DNA of 64,000 nucleotides from Patescibacteria group bacterium (GTDB taxonomy: Bacteria > Patescibacteriota > Microgenomatia > JAMCZE01), in assembly GCA_023485845.1 (NCBI GenBank), contig JAMCZE010000001.1, positions 62,456-126,455 of the forward strand, written 5' to 3'. A program made the position numbers and the translations under genes. Position 1 is the first letter of the stretch. Every line of letters starts with the position of its first letter. The notes beneath the pieces are model-generated. The model was not told the DNA's origin, searched no databases, and saw only the letters and a program-made list of their open reading frames with translations. Shown here piece by piece: positions 672 through 49,520 of this stretch.

Positions 672-1447
672 AAAAAGTTTATCTTTCCGTGGTGATTCCC
701 TCATATAACGAGACGGAGAATTTGCGCCGGGGGGTGTTGGAGGAGGTTAAAAGCTACCTGTCCAAGCAAAAATATTCCTGGGAAGTGATTGTGTCCGATG
801 ATGCCTCGCCGGATGAAGAGTCGCGCCGGCTGGCCAAAGATTTTTGTGATCGAAATAGGGGTTTCACTTATTTGCAGAACCAGCACGGTGGCAAGCCGCT
901 GGCGGTTTGGGCCGGAATTCAAAAAGCCGTTGGGGAATTAGTTTTATTCACCGATATGGACCAGTCAACCCCCATCGGCGAGTTGGAAAAGTTGCTGCCG
1001 TATTTTGACCGGGGTTTTGACGTGGTCATCGGCAGCCGGGGATTGGAAAGGAAAAACTTTTCCCTGTTCCGCCAGTTGGCCTCATTTATCTTTCGTAACA
1101 TTCGCCGCTCGGTGCTGTTGCGAAAAATTGTGGACACCCAAGCCGGGTTTAAGTGTCTGCGTGCCAGTGTGGCTAGAGAGATTTTCCCGGTGATGGACGT
1201 GATCGCCAGTGCCGGAAAAGGATCGCAAGGTTGGACAGTAACGTCGTTTGATGTGGAAATGCTGGTGATTGCCCAAGACCGCGGTTATAAAATTGCCGAA
1301 GTGCCGGTTTCCTGGGCGGATCGGGACATCTCGGTGGCTAAAGCCGCCGAACGGGGCCAGGGGAAATTTATCAAAGAATCCATCGATATGCTCCAGGAAG
1401 TCTACCGAGTCAAATTTAACCAACTGCGCGGCCGATACAAAAAATGA
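668..1447 (+). CDS. GT2 glycosyltransferase, soluble DPM1-like polyprenol-phosphate sugar synthase type
   Basis: N-terminal VVIPSYNE..SDDAS..D.D signature of GT-A/GT2. Paralog of 31880..32635. ATGA overlap with upstream gene. Confidence 0.8.
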   Translation: MKKVYLSVVIPSYNETENLRRGVLEEVKSYLSKQKYSWEVIVSDDASPDEESRRLAKDFCDRNRGFTYLQNQHGGKPLAVWAGIQKAVGELVLFTDMDQSTPIGELEKLLPYFDRGFDVVIGSRGLERKNFSLFRQLASFIFRNIRRSVLLRKIVDTQAGFKCLRASVAREIFPVMDVIASAGKGSQGWTVTSFDVEMLVIAQDRGYKIAEVPVSWADRDISVAKAAERGQGKFIKESIDMLQEVYRVKFNQLRGRYKK

Positions 1448-19982: not shown

Positions 19983-22104
19983 ATTTTTTCCGCTGATTTT
20001 TCTGGTCGCGTTCGTTATCATTGTTTTTCGCCAGTTTTTCTTTTCCGGACAATTGCCAATCCCGGCGGACACCATCGTTGGTCTCTATCATCCTTGGCGT
20101 GATGCTCTGGCCGGTCAGTACCCTAATGGGCTGCCCTTTAAGAATTTCCTAATTACTGATCCGGTTCGCCAGACTTACCCCTGGCGGCAGTTGGCCATGT
20201 CCGTTCTTAAAAGTGGGCAGGTGCCCTGGTGGAATCCCTACTCGTTTTCCGGGGCCCCATTGTTAGCTAACTTACAGTCGGCAGTTTTTTATCCCCTAAA
20301 CCTGCTTTACATTTTTGATAATTTTCCCTTGGTTTGGTCCTGGCAGATTGTCTTCCAAGTTATCCTCGGTGGGCTGTTCATGTGGCTTTATCTGCGTCAC
20401 TTTCGGCTTCACCTTTTTGCCCAAGCCCTGGGGGTTCTAACCTGGGTGGGCAGCGGATTTTGGCTGTCCTGGTTGGAGTGGAACACCCTGGTTCAAGCCG
20501 TTCTTTGGTTACCGTTGTTGTTGTTATGTGTGGAGAAGTTAAATTTTAAATATGGATTAATTTTTGTTTTTGCTCTGACGGCCAGTTTTTTGGCCGGTCA
20601 CCTGCAAACCTTTGCTTACGTGTTCTCTGTTGTTTCTTTATACATCATGGTGCGCCGGCCGCGTCTTATTGCCAGGTTCTTGCTTCTTTATCTGTTATTT
20701 TTTGCTATAACTGCCCCGGTGTGGTGGCCGGCCTTTGGTTTTATCCAACAATCAGCCCGCAGTGCCGACCAGTCGGCAGTTGGCCGGGTCGATTGGTTTT
20801 TGCCTTGGCAGAACCTGGCCCAATTTGTTGCCCCGGATTTTTTTGGCAACCCGGCAACGCTAAATTATTTTGGGGTTTGGAACTACCAGGAGTTTATCGG
20901 CTATACCGGCATCGCTGGTTTGGTCTTTTCGTTGCTTGCCGTTTTCTTTCGACGGGATAAGAAAACACTTTTCTGGGGGACCTTGGCAGTTCTTTGTCTG
21001 GCGTTGGCCTTGCCGACACCATTGGCAAAGATTATGCCCCAACCGGCTCAACCAACCAGATTGTTGTCGATTATTGATTTTTGTCTGGCCATGTTGGCAG
21101 CCTTAGGGTTGGATCTCTATCTGCACCGGTCGCGAAGAATTTTCTGGTTGGTCCCGATTACAGTTTTAATGATAGTCCTGGTTCTTTTTGTTGTTGCCGC
21201 AAAACTTTCTTTAGCGGTAAGTTTACATAATCTCTATCTGCCGATTGCTCTGGCGGCAATGACATTAGTCTTGTTCATTAACAGGAAACTTGCCATCTTG
21301 ATTTTGCTTTTGGCCCTCTTTGACCTGTCACGCTTTTTTATTAAATTTGAATCCTTTTCTAATCCCACTTGGCTTTTTCCCCAAACGAAAGTGGTGTCTT
21401 TTTTGCAAGATCAAACAAGGAAAGACACTTTTCGCATTGCCGCCACGGACGACCGGATTTTCCCCCCAAACTTTTCGGTTGATTATAAACTTCAGATGGT
21501 CTCCGGCTATGACCCGCTATATTTGTTGCGTTATGGGGAATTTGTTGCCGCCATGGAGCGGGGGAAGCCGGACATTTCTGCCCCACTAGGTTTCAACCGA
21601 ATTATCACGCCGAAAAATTATCGTAGCAAACTCTTTAATTTGCTCAATGTTAAATATTTGTTATCGCTTGACCCGGTTGCTGATCCTCAATATCAGTTAG
21701 TTTTCCAGGAGAGGGAAACAAAAGTTTATGAGAACAAGGCAGTTTTGCCTCGGGCGTTTTTCGTGGCGCAGGTGGTTAGTTCATCTGGTGAGCAGGACAC
21801 CATTAATAGAATGTTTGCCGCTGATTTTGATCCGGCTAACACGGCCGTTGTTCAGAACCAAAGTTTTTTTTCTCATCCCGGTCAGGCGCAGATAAAAATT
21901 TATAACGAAAATTCGGTGGTAGTGGAGACCAGCAACACTGATGCCGGCTTTCTGGTGTTAACGGACAACTTCTATCCTGGTTGGCAAGCAACTATTGATG
22001 GACAAAAAACCACAATCTATTTAACCGATTTTGCTTTCCGGGGGGTCGTGGTTCCCGCTGGCCAACACGTCGTGCGCTTTTATCTATATAATAGTGTTCT
22101 ATGA
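19957..22104 (+). CDS. YfhO-family GT-C membrane glycosyltransferase
   Basis: AGGAGA RBS 6 nt upstream of ATG 19957 (track start 19900 rejected). DPVRQTYPW..WNPYSFSGAPLLANLQSAVFYPLN motif; C-terminal ..VVVPAGQHVVRFYLY. Confidence 0.7.
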   Translation: MPRLKKFFKFFPLIFLVAFVIIVFRQFFFSGQLPIPADTIVGLYHPWRDALAGQYPNGLPFKNFLITDPVRQTYPWRQLAMSVLKSGQVPWWNPYSFSGAPLLANLQSAVFYPLNLLYIFDNFPLVWSWQIVFQVILGGLFMWLYLRHFRLHLFAQALGVLTWVGSGFWLSWLEWNTLVQAVLWLPLLLLCVEKLNFKYGLIFVFALTASFLAGHLQTFAYVFSVVSLYIMVRRPRLIARFLLLYLLFFAITAPVWWPAFGFIQQSARSADQSAVGRVDWFLPWQNLAQFVAPDFFGNPATLNYFGVWNYQEFIGYTGIAGLVFSLLAVFFRRDKKTLFWGTLAVLCLALALPTPLAKIMPQPAQPTRLLSIIDFCLAMLAALGLDLYLHRSRRIFWLVPITVLMIVLVLFVVAAKLSLAVSLHNLYLPIALAAMTLVLFINRKLAILILLLALFDLSRFFIKFESFSNPTWLFPQTKVVSFLQDQTRKDTFRIAATDDRIFPPNFSVDYKLQMVSGYDPLYLLRYGEFVAAMERGKPDISAPLGFNRIITPKNYRSKLFNLLNVKYLLSLDPVADPQYQLVFQERETKVYENKAVLPRAFFVAQVVSSSGEQDTINRMFAADFDPANTAVVQNQSFFSHPGQAQIKIYNENSVVVETSNTDAGFLVLTDNFYPGWQATIDGQKTTIYLTDFAFRGVVVPAGQHVVRFYLYNSVL

Positions 22105-24181
22105 GCAGGAAAGTTGGTGTTCTTTTAATTTTGGTCACTTTTCTCGGGGCGTTGCTGCGATTTCGCGACATCACCATTAACCCGCCGAACATTAACACTG
22201 ACGAGGCGGCTATCGGCTACAATGCTTATTCAATTTTAAAAACCGGCCGTGATGAATATGGCCAGCCCTTCCCGTTAGCCTTTCGATCCTTTGATGACTA
22301 TAAACCGCCGCTCTACATTTATATGACCGTTCCGTCAGTGGCAGTTTTTGGCCTTAATGAATTTGCCGTTCGATTCCCCTCGGCTCTGCTAGGCATTCTT
22401 GCTATCCCCATCGTCTTTTTCCTAACTAGGGAGTTACTGGACAACCTGCCTGCCAGCAGGCAGATTGGGTTACTGTCTTCATTTTTGTTGGCGATTTCTC
22501 CCTGGCACATCCAGTTTACCCGAACGGCTTATGAAACCGGAAGCAATGCTTTTTTCACAGGGCTTGGTCTGCTGCTTTTTTTGAAGGGTTTAAAAAACAA
22601 GTGGTTTTTGGTTGGGGCGGGCATCGTTTTTGGCCTGCAAACTTATCTCTATCAGGCCAGCAAAGTTTTTGTTCCGATGCTTATTCAATTTTAAAAACCG
22701 GCCGTGATGAATATGGCCAGCCCTTCCCGTTAGCCTTTCGATCCTTTGATGACTATAAACCGCCGCTCTACATTTATATGACCGTTCCGTCAGTGGCAGT
22801 TTTTGGCCTTAATGAATTTGCCGTTCGATTCCCCTCGGCTCTGCTAGGCATTCTTGCTATCCCCATCGTCTTTTTCCTAACTAGGGAGTTACTGGACAAC
22901 CTGCCTGCCAGCAGGCAGATTGGGTTACTGTCTTCATTTTTGTTGGCGATTTCTCCCTGGCACATCCAGTTTACCCGAACGGCTTATGAAACCGGAAGCA
23001 ATGCTTTTTTCACAGGGCTTGGTCTGCTGCTTTTTTTGAAGGGTTTAAAAAACAAGTGGTTTTTGGTTGGGGCGGGCATCGTTTTTGGCCTGCAAACTTA
23101 TCTCTATCAGGCCAGCAAAGTTTTTGTTCCGATGCTGCTGGCCTGCCTGCTGGTAATTTTCTTTCGCCGGGTGCCCTGGCGGCAATTTATCTGGTTGGCG
23201 TTGCCCCTTGGTCTTCTTCTAATCCCGGTGGTCATAACCACTCTTTCACCAACCGGAATTCTTCGGGTTCAGGGAACCAGCATTTTCCAGGACCCCAAAC
23301 CACTAGAGCGCTATGGGGCCCTGGTGAAGACCGATTGGCTGAGAAATGATAATAAATCGGTGCTGTTGTTTCATCCGAAAGTGTTGACATACTTCCAGGA
23401 CATTTTGGCTGGCTATCTGTCCCATTTCCGGCCGGATTTTTTCTTAGTTAGCAACGGCGATCCAAAAGTAACCTACGTTCCCCAGGTGGGCCTGATGAAC
23501 TTGTGGGTCTACCCGTTTTTCCTGGCCGGTTTTTATTTCCTATTTAAAAGGCGTGATAAAACGGCCGCGGCAGTGCTTGTTTCCTGGTTCTTAATTGCCC
23601 CGATTCCGGCAGCGGTTACTATTGGGTTGCCTAATTCTGTCCGCAGTGCGGTTTTTTTGCCCGATTTGCAGATTATTGCGGCCTATGGTTTGTTTAGTCT
23701 TTTCCCCAAGCTGGCGGGGATTTTAAAAACTGCTTTATTTCTTGCGGCAGTTTATCTGTTTGCTTTTTATGTCCATATGCTCTTTGTTCATGCCCCTGTT
23801 GCTTCCGCCCAGCAATGGTATTACGGCTATAAACAGATGGTGGAACAAACGCTTGAACTTCAAAAAGATTATAAGCAAGTTTACGTTTCCACCGATCTGG
23901 ACCAGCCGCAGATTTTTTATCTTTTCTATCTTAAATATGACCCCCAACATTATCTTAATGTTGACGGCGGCACCAAGGGTGGAGGGTTTGATGAACAAGG
24001 GAATCGCTTTGCTAATTATTACTTTCGCTCTTTGGATTTTGGGCAAAATCGCTCAAACTTCGATATTCTTTTCGTTGGCCCGCCAAAGGAATTTCCCACC
24101 ACGGTTAAGCCAATAAAGATTTTGTATGATCCCGACGGTCAGCCCTTTGTCTATTTTGTCAAACCCAGCTTGCCGACATAA
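22101..24181 (+). pseudogene. PMT/ArnT-like GT-C gene split by an internal 455-bp tandem duplication (ORFs 22101..22694 and 22601..24181)
   Basis: The N-terminal ORF carries the TDEAAIGYNAYSILKTG DE motif and stops at LIQF* just inside the second repeat copy. The second ORF resumes in another frame. Removing one 455-bp copy restores a single ~541-aa ORF closely similar to 30402..31883. Confidence 0.6.
22222..23136. repeat. Perfect tandem duplication, 455-bp unit x2, junction microhomology ATGCT
   Basis: 22222..22681 equals 22677..23136 base for base as far as checked. Both strands yield identical shadow ORFs (22319..22510 and 22774..22965). Unit length is not a multiple of 3. Confidence 0.85.
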
Positions 24182-25650
24182 TGAAAAAGTTTTTACTGCC
24201 CGCCACGTTTATCTTAATCATTGTCCTGGCATTCTTTCTTCGGTTTTACCACTTGACTCTTGACCCGCCCCATCTTTATTGGGACGAAGCCTCGATTGCC
24301 TATAATGCCTACTCAATTAACCAGACGGAAAAGGATGAGTGGGGAGCAGCCGCCCCGGTGCTTTTTAAGGCCTTCGGGGAATACAAATTTCCGGCCTATA
24401 TCTATCTCACAGCGGCGTCGCAGCGGCTTTTCGGCCTCACCGATTTTGCTGTCCGTTTCCCCTCTGCCATCGCCGGGGTCTTAATAGTTGTCGTGGTGTT
24501 TTTTCTCACCAAAGAACTATTTGGTAATTTGATCACGGCCTTATTGTCTTCATTTTTTGTAGCGGTTTCTCCCTGGGCACTGCAATTTTCCCGGGCCGGC
24601 TTTGAAGCAAACCTGGCCGTCCTTCTCATCGTCTCCGGAATCTATTTTTTCCTGCGCAAGGCCTATCTTATTTCCTTGATGCTAATCGCCGCCGCTCTCT
24701 ACACTTATCAGGCTGCCTTTGTTAGTGTTCCTTTGGTTTTGCTGTTGCTAATTATCTCTTTTTCTCACACAAAAAGATTAATCCTGCCGTTAATTGTCTT
24801 TGCCGTTGTTTTGCTGCCGCTGGCGAATGCCTATCTTTTCTCTGGCGGTCGTGCCCGGGCGGCCAGTGAAAACTTTTTAAATATGGCCGGCAATCCGGTG
24901 ACAAATCTCACCAATAATTACGTGGCAAATTTTTCCCTGGATTATCTTTTCTTCCATGGGGATCAGGACGGCCGCCACTCGGTGAAAAAAATCGGCGAGT
25001 TATATCTTTGGCAGCTGCCGTTAATTTTGGCCGGCTGCTATGTTCTTCTTCGCCGGCCATCCAAAGCAGGAGCGCTGGTTTTTGGGTTGATCTTGGCCGG
25101 CAGTTTGCCCCCGGCTTTGACCACTGTTTCTCCCCATGCCCTGCGCGGGCTGCTGGCAATGGTCGGCTGGCAGCTTTTGTCTGCCAGCGGCGCGGTTTGG
25201 CTATTGGCAAAAACGCCGAAGTTCTGGCGCCTTTTAGCTATTGCGGTGATTGGATATGCCCTGATTATTTATCTAAATCTCTATTGGGTTAATTACCCAG
25301 CAGCCTACGCGGCTGACTGGCAAGATGGCCAGCGCCAGACTGTGGAATACTTGAAGCGGGTGGAAGGAAATTATAGCGAAATCTTAGTTAGTCAAGACCT
25401 AAATCCGATTTATATTTTTCTCTATTGGCCCGTTGACCCAAGGGTTGTTCAGGACAGCGGTCACAACGAACAGACTTTTTTGAAGTTTCATTATGTTGAT
25501 CTTGGTGGAGGGTTTGACCCGGTTAAACAATATGCCGGCAGAAAAGTTTTGGTGGTGACGCCGGGGTGGTATAACAATGAGTCTTGGACCATTTTACGAG
25601 CGATAAAGTCTGCCAGTGGAGACTATGTCTTTCGAATTTATGAATTTTGA
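24181..25650 (+). CDS. GT-C glycosyltransferase, PMT/ArnT-like
   Basis: LYWDEASIAYNAYSI DE motif after the first TM. 489 aa polytopic. TAATG overlap. Confidence 0.7.
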   Translation: MKKFLLPATFILIIVLAFFLRFYHLTLDPPHLYWDEASIAYNAYSINQTEKDEWGAAAPVLFKAFGEYKFPAYIYLTAASQRLFGLTDFAVRFPSAIAGVLIVVVVFFLTKELFGNLITALLSSFFVAVSPWALQFSRAGFEANLAVLLIVSGIYFFLRKAYLISLMLIAAALYTYQAAFVSVPLVLLLLIISFSHTKRLILPLIVFAVVLLPLANAYLFSGGRARAASENFLNMAGNPVTNLTNNYVANFSLDYLFFHGDQDGRHSVKKIGELYLWQLPLILAGCYVLLRRPSKAGALVFGLILAGSLPPALTTVSPHALRGLLAMVGWQLLSASGAVWLLAKTPKFWRLLAIAVIGYALIIYLNLYWVNYPAAYAADWQDGQRQTVEYLKRVEGNYSEILVSQDLNPIYIFLYWPVDPRVVQDSGHNEQTFLKFHYVDLGGGFDPVKQYAGRKVLVVTPGWYNNESWTILRAIKSASGDYVFRIYEF

Positions 25651-26068
25651 TTTTGCATGTAACATCGGACACATTCAACTTGATGTTCCCCATCAGGTTT
25701 GGGAAGCTGTGGTGGCCGGAGGCAATGTCGACCCTTTGATTTCCCGGTTTTTACACTCCACGCCGTCTTTCTATGCTAATAATCTTCTTCGTTGCTATCT
25801 TTCCTATTTTTCCCCGGACTTTCTAACCCAAGCGTTCACTCTTGTTGGCCTGATTCTTTTCGGCCTGGGGTTATGGCACCTGGTGATCAATAATCACTGG
25901 AAACTTCTCGCTCTCGTTCTTCTCGCCCCGCTCTCACCACTTTTCAATATCCCCCAAAGCGGACTATATCAAGGCGCCATTCTCTATTTTACTCTCGTCC
26001 TAGTGATACTTTTCGGGATTTATAATTTATTTGTATGGTTAGTAAAGATAAAATCCTCCTGGTGGTAG
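25640..26068 (+). CDS. Hypothetical small membrane protein (3 TM)
   Basis: ORF bridging two GT-C genes, with hydrophobic segments. The start could be 25616 or 25640. No recognisable motif. Confidence 0.35.
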   Translation: MNFDFACNIGHIQLDVPHQVWEAVVAGGNVDPLISRFLHSTPSFYANNLLRCYLSYFSPDFLTQAFTLVGLILFGLGLWHLVINNHWKLLALVLLAPLSPLFNIPQSGLYQGAILYFTLVLVILFGIYNLFVWLVKIKSSWW

Positions 26069-27627
26069 TTGTTTTTTTGGCGTTTGTTTTGCGGTTCTAC
26101 CAGTTGGGGAGTAATCCGCCAAGTTTATATTGGGATGAAGCGTCACTAGGTTATAACGCCTTTTCTATTGCCACCACCCTGCGTGATGAGCACGGCGAGT
26201 TTTTACCCTTAACCCGCTTTATTGCCTTTGGTGATTATAAAGCGCCCGGCTACATTTATGCAGCCGCTGCCGCCGTCAAACTTTTCGGCCTTTCCGAGTT
26301 AACCGTCCGTTTGTCTTCCGCTCTGGCCGGCACCTTATTGGTTTTAGTGACCTATTTTTTAGTTAAGGAGTTAATTAATGATAAGCAGATAGCTTTAATT
26401 TCTTCGTTTTTGGTCGCCATTTCACCGTGGTCATTGCAATTGAGCCGGGGAGCTTTCGAGGCTAATCTCGCTACCCTTTTCTCCACCGCTGGCGTTTGGT
26501 TTTTTCTTATTGCTCTTCGCCGTAAATCAGCTATCAGCTATCAGCTATCAGCTATCAGCTTCATCTTGTCAATGTACACCTTCAATTCTCACCGGATCTT
26601 CGTGCCGCTGATGATTGGAGCACTACTACTAATTTTTTCCCGTCGTCTCTGGATGCAGAAAAAACATGTTGGCCTGTTTCTTGTATCTTGTTTCTTGTTT
26701 CTTGTTCCCTTGTTATTGTATGCCCGGACCCGAGAAGCCCAGCTGCGTTTTAATGAGGTCAGTTGGCTTAATGATTCTGCCCCGATTGAGTTGTCTAACC
26801 AACGGATCGCTTATGATCATGATGTCTGGTGGGCAAAAATTATTCATAACCGCCGGGTGGTCTACAGCCTGGAGTTTCTCAAACACTACACTGACGCTTT
26901 TAGCACCGACTTCCTATTTATAAAGGGTGACGTTAATGAGCGGTTGTCTATCCAAACCATGGGCGAGCTATATTTAATTGATCTGCCGTTTTTGTTGGCT
27001 GGCCTTTATCTGTTGGTTCGGCGCCCCAATAAATCGACGGCCGTCATCTTGGCCTGGGCATTATTGGCACCAATTCCGGCGGCCATGGCTCGGGAAACGC
27101 CCCACGCGCTGCGGACACTTAATCTTTTGCCGATTCCCCAGATTATCACCGCCATCGGAGTGGCGTGGTCTATCAAGAAATTTCCTAAATTCCTTATCCC
27201 CCTGACCCTCCTAATCTCCCTTAGTGTCTTATTTTATCTTCACAGTTATTATATTGATTATCCGAAAAAATATGATCTGGCTTGGCAGTATGGTTATAAA
27301 CAATTGGTCAGCTATGTGGCGGCGCATGAGAATAACTACGATCATATTAGTGTCACCGAGACCTATGGCCGGCCTTATATTTATTTTCTCTTCTACGAGC
27401 AATACCCCCTGGAGAAATACTTGCAGACAGTGAGCACAGACCGGGATTGGTATGGCTTTTGGTATGTCCACGGCTTTGATAAACTGGTTTTTGGAGACAC
27501 AGCGCCGGGGCAGGGGAGCACGCTTTTTGTCCGCGGGCCGGACGAAGCTCCGGCGGGCGCAAAATTGGTCGATACAATTGATGATTTGAATCATAAACCT
27601 GTCTTTTTGTTATGGGCATCGCGTTAG
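26035..27627 (+). CDS. GT-C glycosyltransferase, PMT/ArnT-like
   Basis: LYWDEASLGYNAFSIA motif; 530 aa. Contains (ATCAGCT)5 and a (GTTTCTT)n tract in frame. Confidence 0.7.
   Translation: MVSKDKILLVVVVFLAFVLRFYQLGSNPPSLYWDEASLGYNAFSIATTLRDEHGEFLPLTRFIAFGDYKAPGYIYAAAAAVKLFGLSELTVRLSSALAGTLLVLVTYFLVKELINDKQIALISSFLVAISPWSLQLSRGAFEANLATLFSTAGVWFFLIALRRKSAISYQLSAISFILSMYTFNSHRIFVPLMIGALLLIFSRRLWMQKKHVGLFLVSCFLFLVPLLLYARTREAQLRFNEVSWLNDSAPIELSNQRIAYDHDVWWAKIIHNRRVVYSLEFLKHYTDAFSTDFLFIKGDVNERLSIQTMGELYLIDLPFLLAGLYLLVRRPNKSTAVILAWALLAPIPAAMARETPHALRTLNLLPIPQIITAIGVAWSIKKFPKFLIPLTLLISLSVLFYLHSYYIDYPKKYDLAWQYGYKQLVSYVAAHENNYDHISVTETYGRPYIYFLFYEQYPLEKYLQTVSTDRDWYGFWYVHGFDKLVFGDTAPGQGSTLFVRGPDEAPAGAKLVDTIDDLNHKPVFLLWASR
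26526..26560. repeat. Perfect heptanucleotide repeat (ATCAGCT)5 inside CDS
   Basis: 35 bp, 5 exact copies, read directly. Encodes ..SAISYQLSAIS..; a one-unit change shifts the frame. Confidence 0.9.
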
Positions 27628-28976
27628 TAATCAGTTTTGTGTTTTACACCCTACTTTCCTGGGCGATTTTATTTCGTGATGCCTGGACGTTAGAAGTGTT
27701 ACGAACAAAGTTTTACCCCGGACAAGCAGCTTTAATCAACCAGATTGAACTATTCCTTCAGCCATTAAAACTGAACACTATTCCTACCCTATTATTTGCT
27801 GTTTTTGCCATTTTTGCGTTTATTGTTTACTTTTTGGCCCTGCGAAAACGAATAGCAGCCTCGAAAATCTTGATTTTCTCTTTGCTTTTCCAAATTATCG
27901 TCTTTTTCTCTTATCCCATCCTTTCCACTGACGTTTTGAGTTACATCCTCTCGGATCGGATCGCCGTGGTTTATCATCAGAGCGTCTGGACCACTAAACC
28001 GAATGTTTTTAACCACGACCCCTACTATTATTTGGTTTATCCCATTTATGCCGCTTCTGATTGGACAAACCAGACTCGGATCTACGGCCCGGTCAATCAG
28101 GTGATCTACTCGGCCGTGACCGCGATCTCCGGGAATGATTTTCTGACTAATCTAGCGGCGCATAAGTTAGTGGTGTTGGTTTTTAATCTGCTGACAATGG
28201 CCCTGGTCTATAAGATTTTGAAGGAGCATTTCCCTGATAAATTAAATTTTAGCCTGGTGTTGCTTTTTTGGAACCCGTTATTTATTTTGGAAACAGTCGG
28301 TTCCGGCCACAACGACATCTTGATGGTTTTCTTTATGTTGCTCTCCTATCTTTTCTATCTTGGAAAGAAGCCAATTTTGGTGGCGCTGGCACTGGCACTG
28401 GCCGTTAATGTCAAGTCCACCGCCTTGCTCTTGGCCACGTTTTACACTGTAGTCTTTCCTCTAACATTTTTTGCGCCCTTTTGCGCCTTTGCATTTGCTG
28501 GATTTTTGACAATGGGAGTGAGTTTGTCGGCCTTTATCAGGCGGACGGCTTTTAGCACCACCCTTTATTGGCAATCCCTGCCGCAACAAGTGGCAAGGGT
28601 CTTGCCTTTTGGCACGCGCGTTCTCACGCCGGTCTTTTTGGTTATTTACGCTTTTCAGTGTCTGCGCGGCTGGCTGACCCGGCGCGATCCGTTAGTTTTG
28701 TATGGCCAGGCAATTCTTTTTTATCTTCTTTTTGCCCTGGGGGCCTATTGGAATTGGTATAGTCTTTGGGTCCTGACCGCATTTGCCTTCTTGGGGCGGG
28801 GACTTTGGAGCCGGATCGCAGCCGCTTTCACTTTCACTTCAGCCCTTGCCTATCCGCTCTATTGGCTCTCATTGCGATTTAACTACCAACATCCCCTCTG
28901 GCCCGTGATAATATATTTAGTGATTGCCGGGGGACCGGTGGGGGTTTTTCTCTATGATAAAGTTAAAGCGCGCTGA
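27612..28976 (+). CDS. Polytopic membrane protein, DUF2029/GT87-like GT-C
   Basis: STDVLSYILSDRI..NHDPYYYLVYP..IYGP loop motifs are shared with 1444..2496. About 10 TM. Confidence 0.55.
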   Translation: MGIALVISFVFYTLLSWAILFRDAWTLEVLRTKFYPGQAALINQIELFLQPLKLNTIPTLLFAVFAIFAFIVYFLALRKRIAASKILIFSLLFQIIVFFSYPILSTDVLSYILSDRIAVVYHQSVWTTKPNVFNHDPYYYLVYPIYAASDWTNQTRIYGPVNQVIYSAVTAISGNDFLTNLAAHKLVVLVFNLLTMALVYKILKEHFPDKLNFSLVLLFWNPLFILETVGSGHNDILMVFFMLLSYLFYLGKKPILVALALALAVNVKSTALLLATFYTVVFPLTFFAPFCAFAFAGFLTMGVSLSAFIRRTAFSTTLYWQSLPQQVARVLPFGTRVLTPVFLVIYAFQCLRGWLTRRDPLVLYGQAILFYLLFALGAYWNWYSLWVLTAFAFLGRGLWSRIAAAFTFTSALAYPLYWLSLRFNYQHPLWPVIIYLVIAGGPVGVFLYDKVKAR

Positions 28977-30405
28977 TATTTTTGCCTGGGTTCTTCTGAC
29001 GTCTGGTTATCTGATTAGTCGTCTGGTTAACTTGGGAATTATTCCCATCTTCACTGATGAGGCCATCTATTTGCGCTGGAGCCAAATCATGGCCAATGAC
29101 GCGGCGCTGCGCTATTTGCCCCTGGTTGACGGCAAACCGCCGCTATTTATGTGGCTAACAGCCGTGGTGATGCGCCTTTTGCCTCGCCTTGACCCACTTT
29201 TAACCGGACGGTTGGTTTCTGTTGGCGCTGGTCTTGCCAGCACCATCGGCATCTTTTTTGCTTCTTATGTGCTCTTTAAAAACAAAAAAATCTCTTATCT
29301 TGCTTCTCTATTCTATATACTCACCCCTTTCTGTTTTTTTTACGATCGTTTCGGCCTTGATGATTCACTCTTGGCGATGTTTGGCATCTGGAGCTTGGGT
29401 TTGGGTGTTTTATTGGCGAAGAAACTCCGCCTGGATGTGGCGATGATTGATGGAATCGCCATCGGTTTTGGGCTCTTGACCAAAACCCCGGCCAATTTTT
29501 TCCTGGTGCTTTTGCCGACCCTGCTACTATTTTTTGATTTTCGCAATAAGAACTGGCAGTCTAACCTGTTAAAACTGGCCGGATTGTTTATGGTGGTAGT
29601 GGTTTTTGCCCAGGGCATTTTCTCCGTCTTGCGGCTTTTTCCGCTGTTTAGCATGATTGGTCAAAAAAACCTGGAATTTGTTGTTCCTTTGTCAGTTTTG
29701 ATCACCCACCCATTGGAATTTTTCCCGGGCAATTTGCACAGCCTACTTAGTTGGGAATTTGTTTATCTAACCCCCTTAATCTCCCTGATATCCCTTATTG
29801 GTCTTTGGGTTGGCCTGAAGAAGTGGCCGCGGCAAACTCTTTTCTTGGCTGCCGGTTTTGTCCTCCCTCTGGTGGCCATTGCCTTGTTCAATAAAGTTAT
29901 CTATCCGCGTTATCTTTCGACTTTCACCCCGGTTCTTTTAATCCTGGCCGCCGTCGGTCTGGCCAATTGTAAGAAAGTTTCCCTAATCTTTCTGATTTCC
30001 CTTATAGTTTTTGCCTGGCCAATCTACACTGATCTTAAGTTGATCACTGACCCGGTTCATGCTCCGCTCCTGCAGGCGGACCGGGACCAATATCTTGACG
30101 GCTGGCCGGCCGGCTTTGGCGTGATTCAGATTCGCAAGTATTTAGCGGGCAAAACCGGGGTCATCGCCACCGAGGGGACCTTTGGTCTAATGCCTTATTC
30201 ACTGGAGCTTTATCAAAAAGACTATCCGAATGTGGAAATAAAAGCTTATTGGCCGCTGCCGGCAACTGCCCCGGCCGGATTGAACTATGTGATTGTCTAC
30301 CAGCACCCCGGTGCGCCGGCCGGCTGGCACGTGGAACTGCTGGCGAAATACCGTCAAGGCCTGGGCGATAGCTATTTGCGGCTGTATAAAGTGCTTCCCC
30401 AATGA
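28954..30405 (+). CDS. GT-C glycosyltransferase, ArnT-like (GT83-like)
   Basis: ATG 28954 chosen (track TTG 28924). PIFTDEAIYLRW DE motif; 483 aa polytopic. Confidence 0.7.
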   Translation: MIKLKRADIFAWVLLTSGYLISRLVNLGIIPIFTDEAIYLRWSQIMANDAALRYLPLVDGKPPLFMWLTAVVMRLLPRLDPLLTGRLVSVGAGLASTIGIFFASYVLFKNKKISYLASLFYILTPFCFFYDRFGLDDSLLAMFGIWSLGLGVLLAKKLRLDVAMIDGIAIGFGLLTKTPANFFLVLLPTLLLFFDFRNKNWQSNLLKLAGLFMVVVVFAQGIFSVLRLFPLFSMIGQKNLEFVVPLSVLITHPLEFFPGNLHSLLSWEFVYLTPLISLISLIGLWVGLKKWPRQTLFLAAGFVLPLVAIALFNKVIYPRYLSTFTPVLLILAAVGLANCKKVSLIFLISLIVFAWPIYTDLKLITDPVHAPLLQADRDQYLDGWPAGFGVIQIRKYLAGKTGVIATEGTFGLMPYSLELYQKDYPNVEIKAYWPLPATAPAGLNYVIVYQHPGAPAGWHVELLAKYRQGLGDSYLRLYKVLPQ

Positions 30406-31883
30406 AGAAATATGCGCTTTTATTAACCATTGTTTTTCTAGCGGCATTGCTTCGCCTCTGGCAGTTGGGAGTCAATCCGCCCAGTCTGGATTGGGATGAA
30501 GCCTCGTTAGGCTGGAACGCTTATTCAATTTTAAAAACCGGTAGTGATGAGTTTGGTAAACCCATCCCGGTTTCTTTGCGGTCGTTTAATGACTATAAAC
30601 CGGCCATGTATGCCTACGCGGCCATTCCGTCGATTGCCGTTTTTGGCCTCAATGAATTTTCCGTTCGCCTGCCTTCGGCAATCGCCGGCATCTTGACGGT
30701 GTTGGTTACTTTCTTTCTGGTCAAGGAACTCACAGACAATGATCTATTGAGTTACTGTGTCGCTGGGTTACTGGCGGTTTCTCCTTGGTCGATTCAGTTT
30801 TCCCGAGTGGCTTTTGAAGCCAATCTTGCCCTTTTTTTCTTTGTTCTCGGGGCCTACTTTTTAATTAAGTTTCTCCACCGCCCCAACATTCTATTTTCTA
30901 TTGCCTACTGTCTGTCGTTTGTTGCCTCTATTTATTCCTATCACAGTCCGCGGGTGGTGGTGCCGGTGTTATTGGTCGCAATAGTTTTAATTTATCGCCG
31001 CATCTTTCTTTCCCACTGGCGTTTGTTTCTTGTTTCTTATTTCTTATTTCTTGCACTGCTTTATCCCTTGGCGCGCAACACGGTTCACACGGGGTCACTT
31101 GAGGCCCGCTATCAAACAGTAGCCGCCAAATTAGATCCAATGGTGATCACCGGCAACTACTTGCGCCATTTTAATTTTGACTTTCTTTTTCTGACCGGGG
31201 ACGACCAGGACCGCCATCACGCGCCCGATATGGGCCTTCTTTATTTGTGGGAGTTTCCTTTTCTTCTAGCTGGCCTTTATTTTCTGGTTAAGGATCGGCC
31301 AAAGTTTTTGCCCTTTTTGGCCATATGGTTTTTTGCCGCCCCGACTGCCTCGTCTTTAGCTAACGATGCTCCCCATGCCGTCCGCTCCCTTTTATTCTTG
31401 CCCACCTGGCAAATTATTACCGCCTATGGTCTGGTGAATCTCCTTCGTGGTCGTCCCCTTCTGGTTTGTCTGATCAGTCTGGTTATCTTCGCTAATGTTT
31501 TCTATTTTCTCCATCAATATTTTGTTCATTTGCCGGTGGAGGATGCCCCCGCTTGGCAATATGGCTACAAACAAATGGTCAAAAACGTTTTGGCGGTCGA
31601 GAAAAATTATGACCGAATTTATGTCACCGGTGCTTATGACCAGCCCTACATTTATTTTCTCTTTTATGGCCGCATCGCCCCGACGATCAAAAATGATGGC
31701 TATTTCTACACTGGCTTTGACAAATACCAGTTTTCCACCACCGACGTAGTCGACCTCAAGGGCCTCTACGTCCTGGCCCCGAAAGACAACCCTCCGGCGG
31801 GATATAAATTAAATGTTTTAGAAACGGTTAATTTCCCCGCTGGCGCCCCGGCGTTTGAAATTGGTACAATACAAAAATCATGA
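30402..31883 (+). CDS. GT-C glycosyltransferase, PMT/ArnT-like (close paralog of the 22101..24181 gene)
   Basis: LDWDEASLGWNAYSILKTGSDEFGKPIP..DYKPAMYAY closely matches the duplicated gene's N-terminus. Contains a (TTTCTTR)4 tract. Confidence 0.7.
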   Translation: MKKYALLLTIVFLAALLRLWQLGVNPPSLDWDEASLGWNAYSILKTGSDEFGKPIPVSLRSFNDYKPAMYAYAAIPSIAVFGLNEFSVRLPSAIAGILTVLVTFFLVKELTDNDLLSYCVAGLLAVSPWSIQFSRVAFEANLALFFFVLGAYFLIKFLHRPNILFSIAYCLSFVASIYSYHSPRVVVPVLLVAIVLIYRRIFLSHWRLFLVSYFLFLALLYPLARNTVHTGSLEARYQTVAAKLDPMVITGNYLRHFNFDFLFLTGDDQDRHHAPDMGLLYLWEFPFLLAGLYFLVKDRPKFLPFLAIWFFAAPTASSLANDAPHAVRSLLFLPTWQIITAYGLVNLLRGRPLLVCLISLVIFANVFYFLHQYFVHLPVEDAPAWQYGYKQMVKNVLAVEKNYDRIYVTGAYDQPYIYFLFYGRIAPTIKNDGYFYTGFDKYQFSTTDVVDLKGLYVLAPKDNPPAGYKLNVLETVNFPAGAPAFEIGTIQKS

Positions 31884-32635
31884 AGCCATATTTGTCGGTT
31901 GTCATCCCTGCCTATAATGAAGCCAGGAACTTTCGGGATGGAGTTTTGGACCAGGCAATAGGCTATCTAAAAAAACAAAAATATTCCTGGGAGGTTTTGC
32001 TGGTTAATGACGGTTCCACCGACGACACTAAGGTCCTTTTGGAAGGATTTTGCAAAAAGAATAGGAACTGCCGATTGATGACAATTTCCCACGGTGGCAA
32101 GGCAGCAGCCGTGACCGCCGGAATGCTGGCAGCGGGAGGAGAAATGGTTGTTTTCACCGACTTTGACCAGTCAACACCGCTTAACCAAATAGAGAAGTTT
32201 ATTAAGGAGCACAAAGCCGGGGCAGGCGTGGTGGTCGGTGATCGGGGAGGAATGGGCAAGATGAATAACACCCTCTTTCGCCGGATCAGAAGTATGGTTT
32301 TTGTCACCTTAGTAAATATTATCCTTTTGCCGGGGATCCGTGACAGCCAATGTGGGTTCAAGTCCTTCACCGGTGGCGCCGCCAAAGAGATCTTCAAGAG
32401 CTTGAAGGTTACCCGGACAAGGAAAGTCACCGGGGGCTACATGGGGGCGTTTGATGTTGAGGTTCTTTACTTGGCTCGAAAATTTGGCTATAAAATAGTT
32501 CAAGTCCCGGTAATTTGGAAAAATGTCGAAGGAACCAGGCTTAATCCTTGGCTGGAGCCACTTAAGATGTTGTGCGACACCGTTAAAGTTCGTTTAACCA
32601 ATTATGATTATCACTCAAACACCGCTGCGGATTAG
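31880..32635 (+). CDS. GT2 glycosyltransferase, soluble DPM1-like (paralog of 668..1447)
   Basis: LSVVIPAYNEARN..EVLLVNDGSTDDT..TDFDQSTP motifs. Confidence 0.8.
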   Translation: MKPYLSVVIPAYNEARNFRDGVLDQAIGYLKKQKYSWEVLLVNDGSTDDTKVLLEGFCKKNRNCRLMTISHGGKAAAVTAGMLAAGGEMVVFTDFDQSTPLNQIEKFIKEHKAGAGVVVGDRGGMGKMNNTLFRRIRSMVFVTLVNIILLPGIRDSQCGFKSFTGGAAKEIFKSLKVTRTRKVTGGYMGAFDVEVLYLARKFGYKIVQVPVIWKNVEGTRLNPWLEPLKMLCDTVKVRLTNYDYHSNTAAD

Positions 32636-33584
32636 TTTTCTTGGGGGCAACACCGATTTCCCGGATTTTTTCAGGAAACACGGCGGGGCGGTGCTGACCA
32701 CGGCTATCGATAAGTATATTTATTGTATTCTCACTGAACGCTTTGATGACAAGATTTATGTTAACTGGAGTAAGAAAGAAATTGTTGACAATGTTGATCA
32801 GATTGAACATGAACTGGTGCGGGAGGCCATGAAGAAAACCGGCGTCACCAAGGGGGTGGAAATTTCTTTTTTGGCAGACATTCCTTCCGAAGGTTCCGGC
32901 CTTGGTTCCTCCGGCTCGGTGTTGGTGGGAGCCTTAAACGCTCTCTATCACCATGTTGGTCACACCCCAACCCCAGAACAGCTAGCAGAAGAAGCGGTGG
33001 AGATTGAGGTGGAGAAATTGGGTAAACCGGTTGGTGTCCAGGACCAGTACATTGCCGCTTTTGGCGGTTTACGCTTTTTGGAATTTCACAAAACCGGAGA
33101 TATTTCTACCGAGAAAGTGAACTTAACCAACGGTCGGCTGGCCGATCTGGCGAGCTCTCTGATGCTTTTCTACACTGGTCGATCCCGACTTTCCAAGACT
33201 ATTTTGGTTGATGTCCATCAAAATCTTGACAAAAAAACACAAGTTCTCTTGCAAACTAAGAGGCTGGCGCAGACGGGGCACCGGGCACTGGTCAGCGGCA
33301 ACGTGCAAAAACTTGGAGAACTAATGAACGAATATTGGCAACTGAAAAAGGCGATGGCGGATAATATTTCCGACCGGGAGATCGATCGGATGTATTCTCT
33401 GGCAAAAAAGGCCGGGGCCATCGGCGGAAAAATTGCCGGCGCCGGGGGTGGCGGGTTTTTGGTGTTAATCGTTCCCAGCCAGAGGCGGGAATCAGTCCGC
33501 CAAGCCCTATCTTCTTATAAAGAGCTTCCTATTGGATTGGAGCGGGATGGCAGCAAGGTCATTTTTAATGTTCGCCGCTATTAG
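32604..33584 (+). CDS. GHMP-family sugar kinase, D-glycero-D-manno-heptose 7-phosphate kinase (HddA)-like
   Basis: GHMP ATP motif PSEGSGLGSSGS and C-terminal GAGGGGF. Placed directly upstream of gmhA. Confidence 0.65.
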   Translation: MIITQTPLRISFLGGNTDFPDFFRKHGGAVLTTAIDKYIYCILTERFDDKIYVNWSKKEIVDNVDQIEHELVREAMKKTGVTKGVEISFLADIPSEGSGLGSSGSVLVGALNALYHHVGHTPTPEQLAEEAVEIEVEKLGKPVGVQDQYIAAFGGLRFLEFHKTGDISTEKVNLTNGRLADLASSLMLFYTGRSRLSKTILVDVHQNLDKKTQVLLQTKRLAQTGHRALVSGNVQKLGELMNEYWQLKKAMADNISDREIDRMYSLAKKAGAIGGKIAGAGGGGFLVLIVPSQRRESVRQALSSYKELPIGLERDGSKVIFNVRRY

Positions 33585-42606: not shown

Positions 42607-43083
42607 ATGAAGTTGCTGGTTATCACAGAATTTAACCCGGAAAAGCTTGGGGGAGCAGAGATGCATGCCAGCCAAGTTTTAAAACGGATCAGGCCAAAGT
42701 TTTCCGCGGTTATTGTTCCCAAGATTTCCTACCCCTACGTCCCCAATTTTTCCTGGATTTTTTATATGCTTTTTGCCACACCGGTTATTTTCTGGGAGAC
42801 GATTCGATCTAAGCCGGATTTGCTTTGGGCCACCCTGGATTTTCCCCAGGCCCAGGTGGGAGCAGTTATTAAGGTGCTCACTAGTAAGCCGCTTTACGTC
42901 ACTTCGCAAAATCCCCTGTTGGGGGAGGAAGAGTTTGTTGGTTTGGGCGGGAAATTAGTCAAATATTTGGTTTCCTTTGCGTTTGCCCGGGCCGATGTGG
43001 TGGCCGCTGTCAGCACTTATTCCGCCAACCTGGCGAAAAAACTCGGGGCCAAAAAAGTGGTTATTATTCCCAACGGCGTATGA
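42607..43083 (+). CDS. GT4 N-terminal Rossmann-domain fragment, ends ..VVIIPNGV*
   Basis: Stops just after the IPNG motif that normally precedes the C-terminal domain. ATGA overlap with the next ORF. Confidence 0.55.
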   Translation: MKLLVITEFNPEKLGGAEMHASQVLKRIRPKFSAVIVPKISYPYVPNFSWIFYMLFATPVIFWETIRSKPDLLWATLDFPQAQVGAVIKVLTSKPLYVTSQNPLLGEEEFVGLGGKLVKYLVSFAFARADVVAAVSTYSANLAKKLGAKKVVIIPNGV

Positions 43084-43601
43084 TTAAAATCATTACCACT
43101 TCATCACTGATCCCGCGCAACGGCATTGACGTGCTAATTAACGCCTGTAAGCTATTAGCTATCAGCTATCAGCTCGTTATTGCTGGAGACGGGCCGGAGC
43201 GAGCAAAGTTGGAAAAGCTGGCTGCCGACATGCCGGTGAAGTTTCTTGGTCGTGTCCCCAATAATCTAGTCCCTAGTCTACTAGTCACTAGTCACTTATT
43301 TGTCCGTCCGTCCCGTTTTGAGGGCTTTGGCAGTTCATTTATTGAGGCAATGGCCGCCGGATTGCCGGTGATCGGCACGCCGGTCGGGGGAATCGTCGAT
43401 TTTCTTAAAGACGGCCAAACCGGGCTTTTGGTTCCGCCGGATGACCCACCGGCCCTGGCTGCCGCCATCACCCGGTTGACAAAGGACAAAAAGCTGGCCA
43501 AAAAACTGTCCGAAGACGGTCGGGAGCTGGTGGAGAAAAAATACCGCTGGGACAAAATCGCCGACCACGTCTATTTGGAAATGAAGAAGCTATGTGGTTA
43601 A
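43080..43601 (+). CDS. GT4 C-terminal (Glycos_transf_1) domain fragment
   Basis: ..SLIPRNGIDVLINA..VIAGDGPE..RFEGFGSSFIEAMAAGLPVIGT.. This is the C-terminal half of a GT4. Carries an (AGCTATC)n tract. Confidence 0.55.
   Translation: MIKIITTSSLIPRNGIDVLINACKLLAISYQLVIAGDGPERAKLEKLAADMPVKFLGRVPNNLVPSLLVTSHLFVRPSRFEGFGSSFIEAMAAGLPVIGTPVGGIVDFLKDGQTGLLVPPDDPPALAAAITRLTKDKKLAKKLSEDGRELVEKKYRWDKIADHVYLEMKKLCG
43150..43174. repeat. Imperfect heptanucleotide tract, same unit as 26526..26560 (AGCTATT AGCTATC AGCTATC AGCT)
   Basis: Read directly. Shares the exact 18-mer AGCTATCAGCTATCAGCT with the (ATCAGCT)5 locus. Confidence 0.8.
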
Positions 43602-45199: not shown

Positions 45200-46283
45200 T
45201 TTTCTTATTGATTTGGTTGTAGTCAGCCTATTCTTGTTTAATATCATCCCTCAGAAATATCATGTCATGGGCTTCTCTTTCCATAATGGTGGCGATGATG
45301 TCACTTACTTCAAGTTAGCCCAGAGCTTTGCCCAAGGAAATCCTTTTGGATGCGGCTGTTCAATCGGATATTCATTGACTTTAGCCCCGATTTTAAAATT
45401 GATGCCAAACATGTCTCACGATGATTTTCTTGTTGCAGTTTCGTTTATCACTTCAATAGGGCTCTTCCCACTCGGACAGATACTCCTATTCGAAATAAGT
45501 AAAAAAATGACCGGGTCAACTGAAACTGGGTCAGTAGTGGTGTTATTTTGGACGCTGTTGCCAATCGTCACCTTCTTGTTGTTAAAATTTATTATCCACG
45601 ATCCTAATGCTGGAGATATTTCGTCACATCTAATCTGGGCCCAAATGCTGACCGAGGGAATAACAACGATGGTTTCGCTTCTGGCATTAAATTTATTTTT
45701 AGATTTGCATAAAAAGCAAACCATCTCAAACATTATCCTGTTTGGAGCAATGTCTGGTTATATATTTCTCCTAAGAATAACTGGTGTTGTGGCAATTGTG
45801 GTGTTTGCTTTAATTTTTATTAAAAGCAAAAAATGGAAACAACTATTAATCTTTCTCACTTCTGCTTTTGTAATTGTGCTTCCCCAGTTGATCTATAATT
45901 ACACATTTTTTGGATCTCCACTTACTAGCGGATATGTAGTTAATAATCGTCTCGAGAGTGGCCTTTTTAGCGCGAAATATTTACTTGATGCTCTTATTAA
46001 AACTTGGACAAGGTTTGGTCCACTGGTGTTAGTAGTGATACCAATTACAGTAATGATTTTTTGGTCAAGCCTTATAAAATTAAAACGTTACTGCCAGGAC
46101 GGCGCTCTGGTAATTTTTCTCTGGACGATCGGGACAGTGGCAATATACTCCCTGTACTATTATACTTATACTGGTGACTACGTTCGGTTCATGATCCCAA
46201 TTCTGCCATTCCTGAGCCTAATTTTTATTTCCGGAATACCTTATGAGAATATTATCAATCGGCTTAGATCGCGCGCTATTTGA
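45186..46283 (+). CDS. GT-C-like polytopic membrane protein
   Basis: HNGGDDVTYFKLAQSF DD motif after TM1. 365 aa. AT-richer than upstream genes. Confidence 0.5.
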   Translation: MKFINFLIDLVVVSLFLFNIIPQKYHVMGFSFHNGGDDVTYFKLAQSFAQGNPFGCGCSIGYSLTLAPILKLMPNMSHDDFLVAVSFITSIGLFPLGQILLFEISKKMTGSTETGSVVVLFWTLLPIVTFLLLKFIIHDPNAGDISSHLIWAQMLTEGITTMVSLLALNLFLDLHKKQTISNIILFGAMSGYIFLLRITGVVAIVVFALIFIKSKKWKQLLIFLTSAFVIVLPQLIYNYTFFGSPLTSGYVVNNRLESGLFSAKYLLDALIKTWTRFGPLVLVVIPITVMIFWSSLIKLKRYCQDGALVIFLWTIGTVAIYSLYYYTYTGDYVRFMIPILPFLSLIFISGIPYENIINRLRSRAI

Positions 46284-49512: not shown

Positions 49513-49520
49513 TCAAATTT

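Follow-up and report, generated by a model that had tools for sequence, protein, structure and literature searches.

The DNA analysed here is a stretch of 64,000 nucleotides (nt) from a Patescibacteria group bacterium of the Microgenomatia (NCBI GenBank assembly GCA_023485845.1, contig JAMCZE010000001.1, positions 62,456 to 126,455 of the forward strand), hereafter called the window. At 26526..26560 on its plus strand lies a perfect heptanucleotide microsatellite, (ATCAGCT)x5, on the coding strand of an open reading frame (ORF) predicted to encode a GT-C fold glycosyltransferase, and the evidence presented below suggests that this tract arose by slippage at a site of the protein that tolerates it. 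The window as a whole is a glycosylation island that encodes more than a dozen GT-C membrane enzymes (PMT_2, GT87, YfhO) and many glycosyltransferases of families 2 and 4 (GT2, GT4), and also a flippase, methyltransferases and sugar-nucleotide enzymes. To judge by source names, the organism is an uncultured bacterium of the Microgenomates/Gottesmanbacteria kind. Since nearly every gene is related to glycans, the location of the repeat in a glycosyltransferase gene is in itself uninformative.

A heptanucleotide tract in a GT-C gene

The host gene and the two arrays that it carries are the following.

26035..27627, plus strand: host gene, predicted GT-C fold glycosyltransferase of 530 amino acids (aa), Pfam PMT_2/PMT, named 'glycosyltransferase family 39 protein' at NCBI
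26526..26560, plus strand: (ATCAGCT)x5, referred to below as the tract
26675..26706, plus strand: second array of the host gene, (TGTTTCT)x4.6 with 92% matches and a perfect core, (TCTTGTT)x3, at 26686..26706

Assignment of the host protein to the predicted GT-C fold glycosyltransferases (PMT_2 / GT39-GT83-like) is supported by Pfam matches to PMT_2 (7.5e-13, 49.4 bits against a cut-off of 26.1) and PMT (8.9e-13, 48.8 bits), and by the N-terminal loop-1 acidic motif W33-D34-E35, which is invariant across the orthologue alignment. A Foldseek search with the model of the protein confirmed the GT-C fold and retrieved STT3/PglB (E ~1e-7) and ArnT (template modelling score 0.57) as well as Pmt, ALG9 and Emb.

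The tract contains no mismatch, and Tandem Repeats Finder (TRF) reports it with period 7, 5.0 copies, 100% matches and a score of 70. It measures exactly 35 nt because the neighbouring bases, A at 26525 and T at 26561, break the period; examples of unique flanks are CTTCGCCGTAA and TCATCTTGTCAATG. The two-unit pattern ATCAGCTATCAGCT, allowing at most one mismatch, was found six times in the window against 0.00 expected from 100 dinucleotide shuffles. Only two perfect tandem repeats of at least 3 copies and at least 14 nt exist in the whole window, both of period 7 and both in the host gene, and third-order Markov simulations produced no period-7 repeat at 3 copies and 14 nt or more. The tract is far beyond chance, and as a tandem array of a 5-11 nt unit in excess over chance it belongs with the long simple sequence repeats (LSSR; SSR, simple sequence repeat) of prokaryotes. 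The first-pass annotation, which had described five perfect copies in this gene and a 7-nt period that codon periodicity does not explain, was thus accurate on both points.

The tract is translated as K-SAISYQLSAIS-F (aa 164-175). As 7 and 3 are coprime, any tract of a 7-nt unit of at least 21 nt is read in all three phases and yields the same cyclic heptapeptide, here SAISYQL, irrespective of the frame. The description of the repeat as lying in frame therefore stands insofar as it is contained in the coding frame, and is uninformative beyond that for any 7-nt unit. On the coding strand ATCAGCT has no stop codon in any of the three phases, whereas the opposite strand, AGCTGAT/(TAGCTGA)n, contains TGA and TAG with stops in all three frames, so that only one orientation can lie in a gene. 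When the copy number was modelled, tracts of 2, 5 and 8 copies gave proteins of 523, 530 and 537 aa, and those of 3, 4, 6, 7 and 9 copies reached a stop at 189-248 aa (189 or 241 aa with 4 or 6 copies), which bears out the earlier claim that gain or loss of one unit shifts the frame. In being uninterrupted, inside an ORF and built of a unit that is not a multiple of three, (ATCAGCT)x5 has the anatomy of a contingency locus.

In the AlphaFold model of the host protein (predicted local distance difference test 83, predicted template modelling score 0.84) helix 138-163 is followed by a turn at aa 164-165 and by helix 166-182, and the tract peptide forms this turn, just after the residues RRK, and the first turns of the transmembrane helix 166-182. 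The closest non-self relative of the protein shares 67% identity with it. Alignment of 23 orthologues showed no indel at the tract relative to most of them and a consensus KxxxxYxLSxxFF, of which the tract peptide retains the conserved Y, L and S positions. Based on this colinearity and on the preserved residues, the tract works as ordinary coding sequence and is not an insertion. Three orthologues are shorter at this site by exactly 7 aa, equivalent to 3 units; the DNA available for these shorter forms (L217, L218) has no heptamer at the site that could represent a 2-copy seed, and an origin from a seed plus three units may be proposed on account of the 4-5-copy mode of the arrays described below. 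A protein search for allelic fragments with a 172-aa query around the tract retrieved two distant proteins only, none of them from the source organism.

The closest orthologue (67% identity) has an array of its own at the tract site, (TCTATCT)x4.4, in the same register. Its unit reads CTATCTT where that of the window reads CTATCAG, and every unit differs by AG vs TT. The core CTATC common to both encodes the conserved L-S, and for this reason the two arrays could either descend from a single ancient array under concerted evolution or have arisen twice from one conserved seed.

Period-7 arrays in related Microgenomates

The comparison with related DNA comprised the DNA of orthologues and 80 homologous loci from Joint Genome Institute (JGI) metagenomes, with 595 kb of Patescibacteria DNA searched by TRF. 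In 439 kb, the perfect tandem arrays numbered 27 for period 7, 5 for period 6, 1 for period 4 and zero for any other period. TRF detected 86 period-7 arrays in the 595 kb, compared to 25, 15 and 5 for periods 8, 9 and 6, respectively. Within these genomes period 7 thus exceeds the periods next to it, as is typical of the LSSR class. Most of these arrays (67/85) were located inside ORFs of GT-C homologues, all on the coding strand; such ORFs account for 60% of the DNA (binomial P = 1.6e-4).

When projected on the host protein, the arrays clustered at aa 114-123, 164-168 (the site of the tract), 211-214 and 373-394, and in the AlphaFold model every one of these hot spots corresponds to a turn plus the start of the next helix. 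Among 192 ORFs, windows with a lag-7 identity of at least 0.70 were present in 2-6% of ORFs at the hot spots against 0.2% on average, and strong windows for lags 6, 8 and 9 averaged 0.003-0.02%, being 10-60 times rarer than those for lag 7. The 70 non-redundant arrays contain 52 different units, with 49% T, and 40/70 have between 4.0 and 5.0 copies. The units differ from lineage to lineage.

Besides the two ATCAGCT-unit arrays, TRF places three period-7 arrays in the window, at 26675, 31023 and 43266. The first of them is the second array of the host gene. The peptide read from it, LFLVSCFLFLV, lies where helix 209-230 begins (hot spot 3), and the unit of this array is preserved in an orthologue of 61% identity and in a paralogue within the window:

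31023..31053, plus strand: (TTGTTTC)x4.4 in the GT-C paralogue 30402..31883, encoding LFLVSYFLFLA, with the same unit and alignment position (query aa 214) as the array at 26675

It could be argued that the period of the tract is secondary to protein-level selection, the heptad SAISYQL-SAIS being favoured for helix packing and the DNA periodicity deriving, for example, from an old 21-nt duplication. In line with this possibility, an approximate 7-aa periodicity occurs at the site in orthologues (e.g., SIFFLLS-SIFF in P0002), the segment is helical in the AlphaFold model, and the CTATC core that the units of the window and the orthologue have in common encodes the conserved L-S. Conversely, a 21-nt duplication yields period 21, and five identical 7-mers in three phases are impossible to obtain by amino-acid selection. 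The mean lag-21 identity in the 192 ORFs (0.283) equals background (lag 7, 0.274; lag 6, 0.283), and the period-7 bias is likewise found in loops, leaders and gene junctions. The perfect 7-nt register largely refutes this explanation, which we consider improbable.

Some related arrays deserve separate mention. In a GT-C homologue of locus L143 an in-frame TGA (746-748) occurs within (TTTTGCC)x4.6 at 743..774, in hot spot 4; it derives from a single altered unit, TTTTGAC, splits the gene into two ORFs of the same frame and represents the only disrupted array found. Heptanucleotide arrays were also observed exactly at the junctions of consecutive GT-C genes (L145, 6066..6170; L200, 4605..4656; L209/L210, 720..744). 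These junction arrays contain stop codons, and in L145 the array (AGTAAGG)x4.1 includes repeated AAGGAG Shine-Dalgarno-like sequences.

Probable slippage and selection, and the stability of the tract

Altogether, the tract is best read, with a probability of about 0.6, as a coding heptanucleotide microsatellite that originated by slippage and is retained, at a copy number neutral to the frame, where the protein structure permits it, and as an instance of a pattern that extends over the lineage. We infer that a bias of polymerase slippage towards 7-nt units would seed arrays everywhere and that selection would remove those that damage the protein or leave the frame broken. The survivors would occupy permissive sites, have copy numbers that leave the frame intact and consist of units that are rich in T or harmless in some other way, a permissive site being one of the few GT-C positions where almost any helix-compatible sequence of the right length may serve. 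The tract would then function simply as protein-coding sequence, and one-unit slips would now and then inactivate an allele of a single member of a set of more than a dozen paralogues, as a by-product and not as a tuned switch.

A bias of this kind has been described before. Heptanucleotide units are over-represented among the long SSRs of many prokaryotic genomes (PMC4679880, PMC4692102) and constitute the most abundant long SSR class in most of them (PMC4679880), and the cause proposed for slippage is that about 7 nt correspond to the contact of the polymerase with DNA (PMC4679880, PMC4692102; the idea is attributed to Mrazek and colleagues). Like the long heptanucleotide SSRs of Mrazek and colleagues (2007, as presented in PMC4679880 and PMC4692102), which are perfect or near-perfect, the tract is a 7-nt array far beyond chance, and its lineage resembles theirs in the dominance of period 7 and in the presumed origin by slippage. 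In that survey, as related in PMC4679880, units in multiples of three are the likeliest inside genes, whereas the Microgenomates arrays are mostly intragenic, on the coding strand, at four positions of one family and mostly with 4-5 copies. The tract can therefore be regarded as an unusually clean member of a heptanucleotide SSR class already known to dominate long repeats in prokaryotes. What the Microgenomates add, and this is of modest interest, is that their arrays are mostly intragenic and return to four structural positions of GT-C paralogues; in one orthologous pair or more, both members carry arrays in the same register. They offer a concrete picture of a 7-nt slippage bias filtered by protein structure and reading frame, and membrane proteins may owe some 7-aa indels to such arrays.

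Hairpin-driven slippage, suggested by the palindromes AGCT and CTAG, was rejected as a general cause. In a folding test against shuffled sequences (ATCAGCT)x5 folded no better than the shuffles (z = -0.66) and (CTAGTCA)x5 folded better (z = -3.08); arrays of TTGTTTC and TAACTGA showed no folding at all in the same test.

The tract could alternatively be a contingency locus, i.e., a slipped-strand switch that turns a GT-C paralogue off (4 or 6 copies) or on (5 copies) and diversifies the surface glycans of the episymbiont against phages or hosts. We regard this as unlikely, though not negligibly so. The tract is perfect and has a unit length indivisible by three, it lies in the first third of the gene, where a one-unit change truncates the protein at 189-241 aa, and the gene is part of a large surface-glycosylation paralogue family, a classic target class. 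Moreover, the same-register array of the orthologue with its altered unit implies repeated slippage, and three orthologues show the 7-aa (3-unit) length difference at the site. That heptanucleotide contingency repeats are known in surface-structure genes, as the first-pass annotation pointed out, is correct for Haemophilus influenzae, where phase variation involves (TGAAAGA)n in the hmw1A/hmw2A promoters, (AATTTTG)14 inside the hmw1A ORF and (AACAACC)n at genes of TonB-dependent receptors (PMC2651432). These switches and the tract are alike in having a 7-nt unit, in their association with surface-structure genes and in the frameshift that follows a one-unit change inside an ORF. However, the documented H. 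influenzae tracts have 6-38 copies, strain-variable copy numbers and OFF states (PMC2651432), whereas the ATCAGCT tract has only 5 copies, no demonstrated length variation and relatives without OFF alleles.

The state of related arrays argues against switching as well. None of the 85 period-7 arrays in the 595 kb of related DNA was frameshifted or out of frame, and the sole interruption was one in-frame TGA, so that no OFF alleles were found among relatives or paralogues. In genomes that have been sequenced, gene sets known to be phase-variable usually include many OFF alleles. In pairs of strains 99.7-100% identical that originate from different metagenomes, no copy-number difference was detected at about 25 arrays, and in a pair 95% identical the array differs by substitutions only. 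The arrays follow permissive protein positions and not 5' ends, and several of them may coexist in one gene (two in the host gene, two in the C-terminal half of the GT4 gene described in the next section, and several in a WecG/TagA-like gene of a groundwater genome), which would make a switch unreliable. Thus, the repeat-number heterogeneity among related strains that the first-pass annotation had proposed to look for was absent from the arrays compared, and the step from a tract that could shift the frame to a contingency locus is not supported in view of the 5 copies, the intact frames of the relatives, the stability of about 25 arrays, the invariance of the second ATCAGCT site and the colinearity with orthologues.

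The assemblies that cover the locus bear both on copy number and on whether the tract is real. Over the tract region, flanks included, the NCBI contig JAMCSA010000023.1 and the window have the same sequence, and the Logan assemblies of three sequencing runs carry the flanks of the tract. In two of these runs 30 nt of the tract are joined to each flank: with k=31, the left contig of SRR10278331 ends at 26555, i.e., one unique base plus 30 nt of repeat, and the right contig of SRR10267473 starts at 26531 with 30 nt of repeat plus the exit base. The suspicion of an assembly or sequencing artefact, which could draw on a 455-bp perfect duplication that is present in the source assembly, missing from other assemblies and hence a sign that the former is not error-proof, is already refuted by these observations.

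The duplication itself extends over 22222..23136 (2.0 copies, 100% identity, ATGCT microhomology at the junction) and splits a PMT_2 gene of 541 aa into the ORFs 22101..22694 and 22601..24181. With one 455-bp copy removed, the window is identical to JAMCSA010000023.1 and to two Logan contigs; as only the source assembly of the window has it, the duplication is either genuine variation of the strain or an error of assembly.

A clonal 35-nt tract consists of five distinct pure-repeat 31-mers and no branch is expected in the assembly graph, so the breaks need at least 38 nt of repeat somewhere in the sample. An end 30 nt into the tract in SRR10278331/SRR10267473 is the k=31 signature of pure-repeat 31-mers with two continuations, as expected from an allele of 6 or more copies; it is the only hint of length heterogeneity and speaks for a contingency locus. 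The breaks could equally come from another (ATCAGCT) array of at least 31 nt in the metagenome, such arrays being known in many phyla and in the groundwater Patescibacteria genome L006, and the two explanations, longer alleles or the same repeat elsewhere, are equally good.

The right-hand Logan contig of SRR10278331 (L126) starts at 26715, 9 nt past the (TGTTTCT) array. A copy-number change in either array fails to explain this position, which points to another cause of branching, such as a single-nucleotide polymorphism at 26714 or a second haplotype. A further run, SRR10252151, gave a contig (L131) that follows the window as far as about 26331 and then closes with 27375..27345 in reverse complement, while another contig of the run, L127, begins at 27345. 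The two contigs share a 30-mer (k-1) and the junction lies in GGCCGGC(C) palindromes, so that it represents either an inversion of about 1 kb inside the GT-C gene or chimeric reads.

Several observations weigh against the tract being a product of slippage and selection. A perfect five-copy tract that replaces 35 nt at constant protein length is not predicted by unit-by-unit expansion, and needs either frame-broken intermediates that were later recovered or a length-neutral templated misalignment. The AG vs TT difference in every unit relative to the orthologue implies repeated turnover of the array and hence a tract that is mutationally active on the evolutionary time scale. Two Logan assemblies (k=31) are interrupted precisely where the tract has its k-1 edges, which is unexpected for a clonal 35-nt tract. 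As to stability, the agreement of the two large-k assemblies on 5 copies constitutes a weak, non-independent test, the rest of their sequence being 100% identical, and the arrays in the strain comparisons are for the most part imperfect and hence less prone to slippage than a perfect array.

A wider proposal can also be put forward. Microgenomates might use coding heptanucleotide arrays at the four GT-C turn/helix-start positions as evolvability modules, in which one-unit slips would switch paralogues off and on, three-unit steps would give 7-aa variants, and surface glycans of the episymbionts would be diversified. The Candidate Phyla Radiation would then have its first observed contingency locus in (ATCAGCT)x5, at whose edges the k=31 graphs of two samples branch; we consider this more doubtful still than a switch at the tract itself. 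Phase variation at the tract is possible but unsupported, and surface-glycan variation in these episymbionts is plausible. None of the papers searched links Patescibacteria or the Candidate Phyla Radiation with SSR phase variation; those listed name both subjects only incidentally, as judged by titles and term counts, with 1-3 mentions of each term and never in the title or abstract. Were read data to reveal copy-number heterogeneity, SSR phase variation would for the first time have evidence from the Candidate Phyla Radiation, and a contingency switch can be tested with public reads.

The second ATCAGCT site and other features of the window

The unit of the tract recurs in a GT4 gene divided into two ORFs. 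This gene and its arrays are as follows.

42607..43601, plus strand: split GT4, with the N-domain ORF at 42607..43083 and the C-domain ORF at 43080..43601
43150..43174, plus strand: second ATCAGCT-unit site, (AGCTATC)x3.6, made of AGCTATT, AGCTATC, AGCTATC and AGCT
43266..43296, plus strand: second array of the GT4 C-terminal half, (CTAGTCA)x4.3 with 88% matches, encoding LVPSLLVTSH

The site at 43150..43174, which is read as KLLAISYQLVIAGDG, lies in the ORF 43080..43601 (Glycos_transf_1, 5.8e-37) and encodes LLAISYQL immediately ahead of the VIAGDG strand of the GT4 C-terminal domain. The earlier report of the 18-mer of the tract at 43157..43174, with a degenerate copy upstream, was confirmed by the succession of its units. 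The N-terminal ORF matches Glyco_transf_4 over model positions 43-166 of 170 and the C-terminal one Glycos_transf_1 over 18-171 of 172; the two ORFs have ATGA in common precisely at the linker between the domains, about 25-30 residues of which seem to be missing. As the Pfam match of the C-terminal half comprises 146 aa over 154 model positions, neither of its arrays is an insertion. A tblastn search detected no orthologue of the split GT4 in the homologous loci fetched, and colinearity at the second site therefore rests on the coordinates of the Pfam model. Four contigs, which come from at least 3 assemblies, encode the exact protein of the C-terminal half with both arrays, and the split is also found on 4 contigs; it could be a genuine GT-B enzyme of two polypeptides or a fixed pseudogene.

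The same reading frame at both ATCAGCT sites was considered as a sign of kinship and rejected, since arrays of 7 nt encode one cyclic peptide in every frame.

Outside the two arrays, ATCAGCT occurs in the window as 4 single copies, with 5.5 occurrences expected for the whole window; the unit is neither dispersed nor enriched as a singleton there. Empirically, two arrays have the same unit with a probability of about 0.01 per pair and roughly 0.1 for the window, so that unit sharing between the GT-C and GT4 genes is only mildly unusual. A scan with the 18-mer, using one genome per species, retrieved at least 120 stretches (species representatives) from many phyla, the matches listed including filamentous cyanobacteria, Acidobacteriota, Chloroflexota, Gemmatimonadota, Bacteroidota and others. 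Eighty loci among the matches listed (864 kb), the source genome not being one of them, were analysed. The ATCAGCT arrays among these matches have up to 10 copies and lie mostly in short open frames, i.e., in intergenic DNA, with a few in unrelated genes (Mfd, PurL and a type IX secretion system (T9SS) sorting domain); in the cyanobacteria listed they stand next to AACTGAT arrays. The 864 kb of these unrelated genomes contain 170 other period-7 arrays, against 14 of period 6 and 17 of period 8. Within the Patescibacteria, the groundwater genome L006 (3850..4594) carries (ATCAGCT)x4.9 inside a gene of the WecG/TagA glycosyltransferase family, together with (AATGTCA)x4.6 and an 8-mer array, (ATCTACAA)x4.3, and (TGACACA)x4.0 in its 5' leader; here the Pfam match extends over 207 residues for 167 model positions, indicating that the L006 arrays are insertions.

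A common slippage-prone element in the two glycosyltransferase genes, as had been hinted at, is thus not supported, and the global frequency of the unit explains the sharing better than such an element does. The best explanation for (AGCTATC)x3.6 in the GT4 gene is an independent example of a unit common across bacterial phyla, and the shared unit is best read in this way and not as a shared element.

Alternatively, a mobile or dispersed repeat, similar in type to TAACTGA or to the short tandemly repeated repetitive (STRR) sequences of cyanobacteria, could have been inserted into both genes. TAACTGA repeats of marine Beggiatoaceae and cyanobacteria number hundreds per genome and are mainly intergenic, just upstream of start codons (PMC4679880); short tandemly repeated heptanucleotides are also known from the cyanobacterium Calothrix, according to a citation in PMC4692102. 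The opposite-strand unit of the tract, TAGCTGA, is one base apart from TAACTGA and is given as a TAACTGA-like heptamer/control heptamer in PMC4679880. The encoded peptides are correspondingly close (SVISYQL for TAACTGA, SAISYQL for the tract), in both cases stops fill one strand and the other is open, and ATCAGCT arrays are widespread, especially in filamentous cyanobacteria among the matches listed. In contrast to TAACTGA repeats, the ATCAGCT array is coding and colinear with orthologues, and its unit is not dispersed in the window: there is one mismatch in the unit, both ATCAGCT arrays lie inside ORFs, no insertion is apparent relative to the orthologues or to the Pfam GT4 model, the array of the orthologue is in the same register, and the window shows neither dispersal of single copies nor features of a flanking element. 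An insertion of this type is accordingly very improbable.

Regarding the surroundings of the tract, the GT-C cluster has a single notable short array that is not heptameric, (TGGCAC)x3.7 at 28381..28402, in the MptA_B-family gene 27612..28976. The gene order of 24181..33584 (PMT_2, a small ORF, PMT_2, MptA_B-family, PMT_2, PMT_2, GT2, GHMP kinase) is shared by L132..L136, though the orthologues are only 61-67% identical. Towards the end of the window, from about 44000 to 64000, the G+C content drops from ~0.47 to ~0.39 and genes for a Wzt-type ABC transporter, GT2, GT10 and GT11 glycosyltransferases, a methyltransferase and an epimerase are found. Several genes of this region have different lengths in a related metagenome-assembled genome, GCA_023379465.1 (L123), which suggests a strain-variable glycan island.

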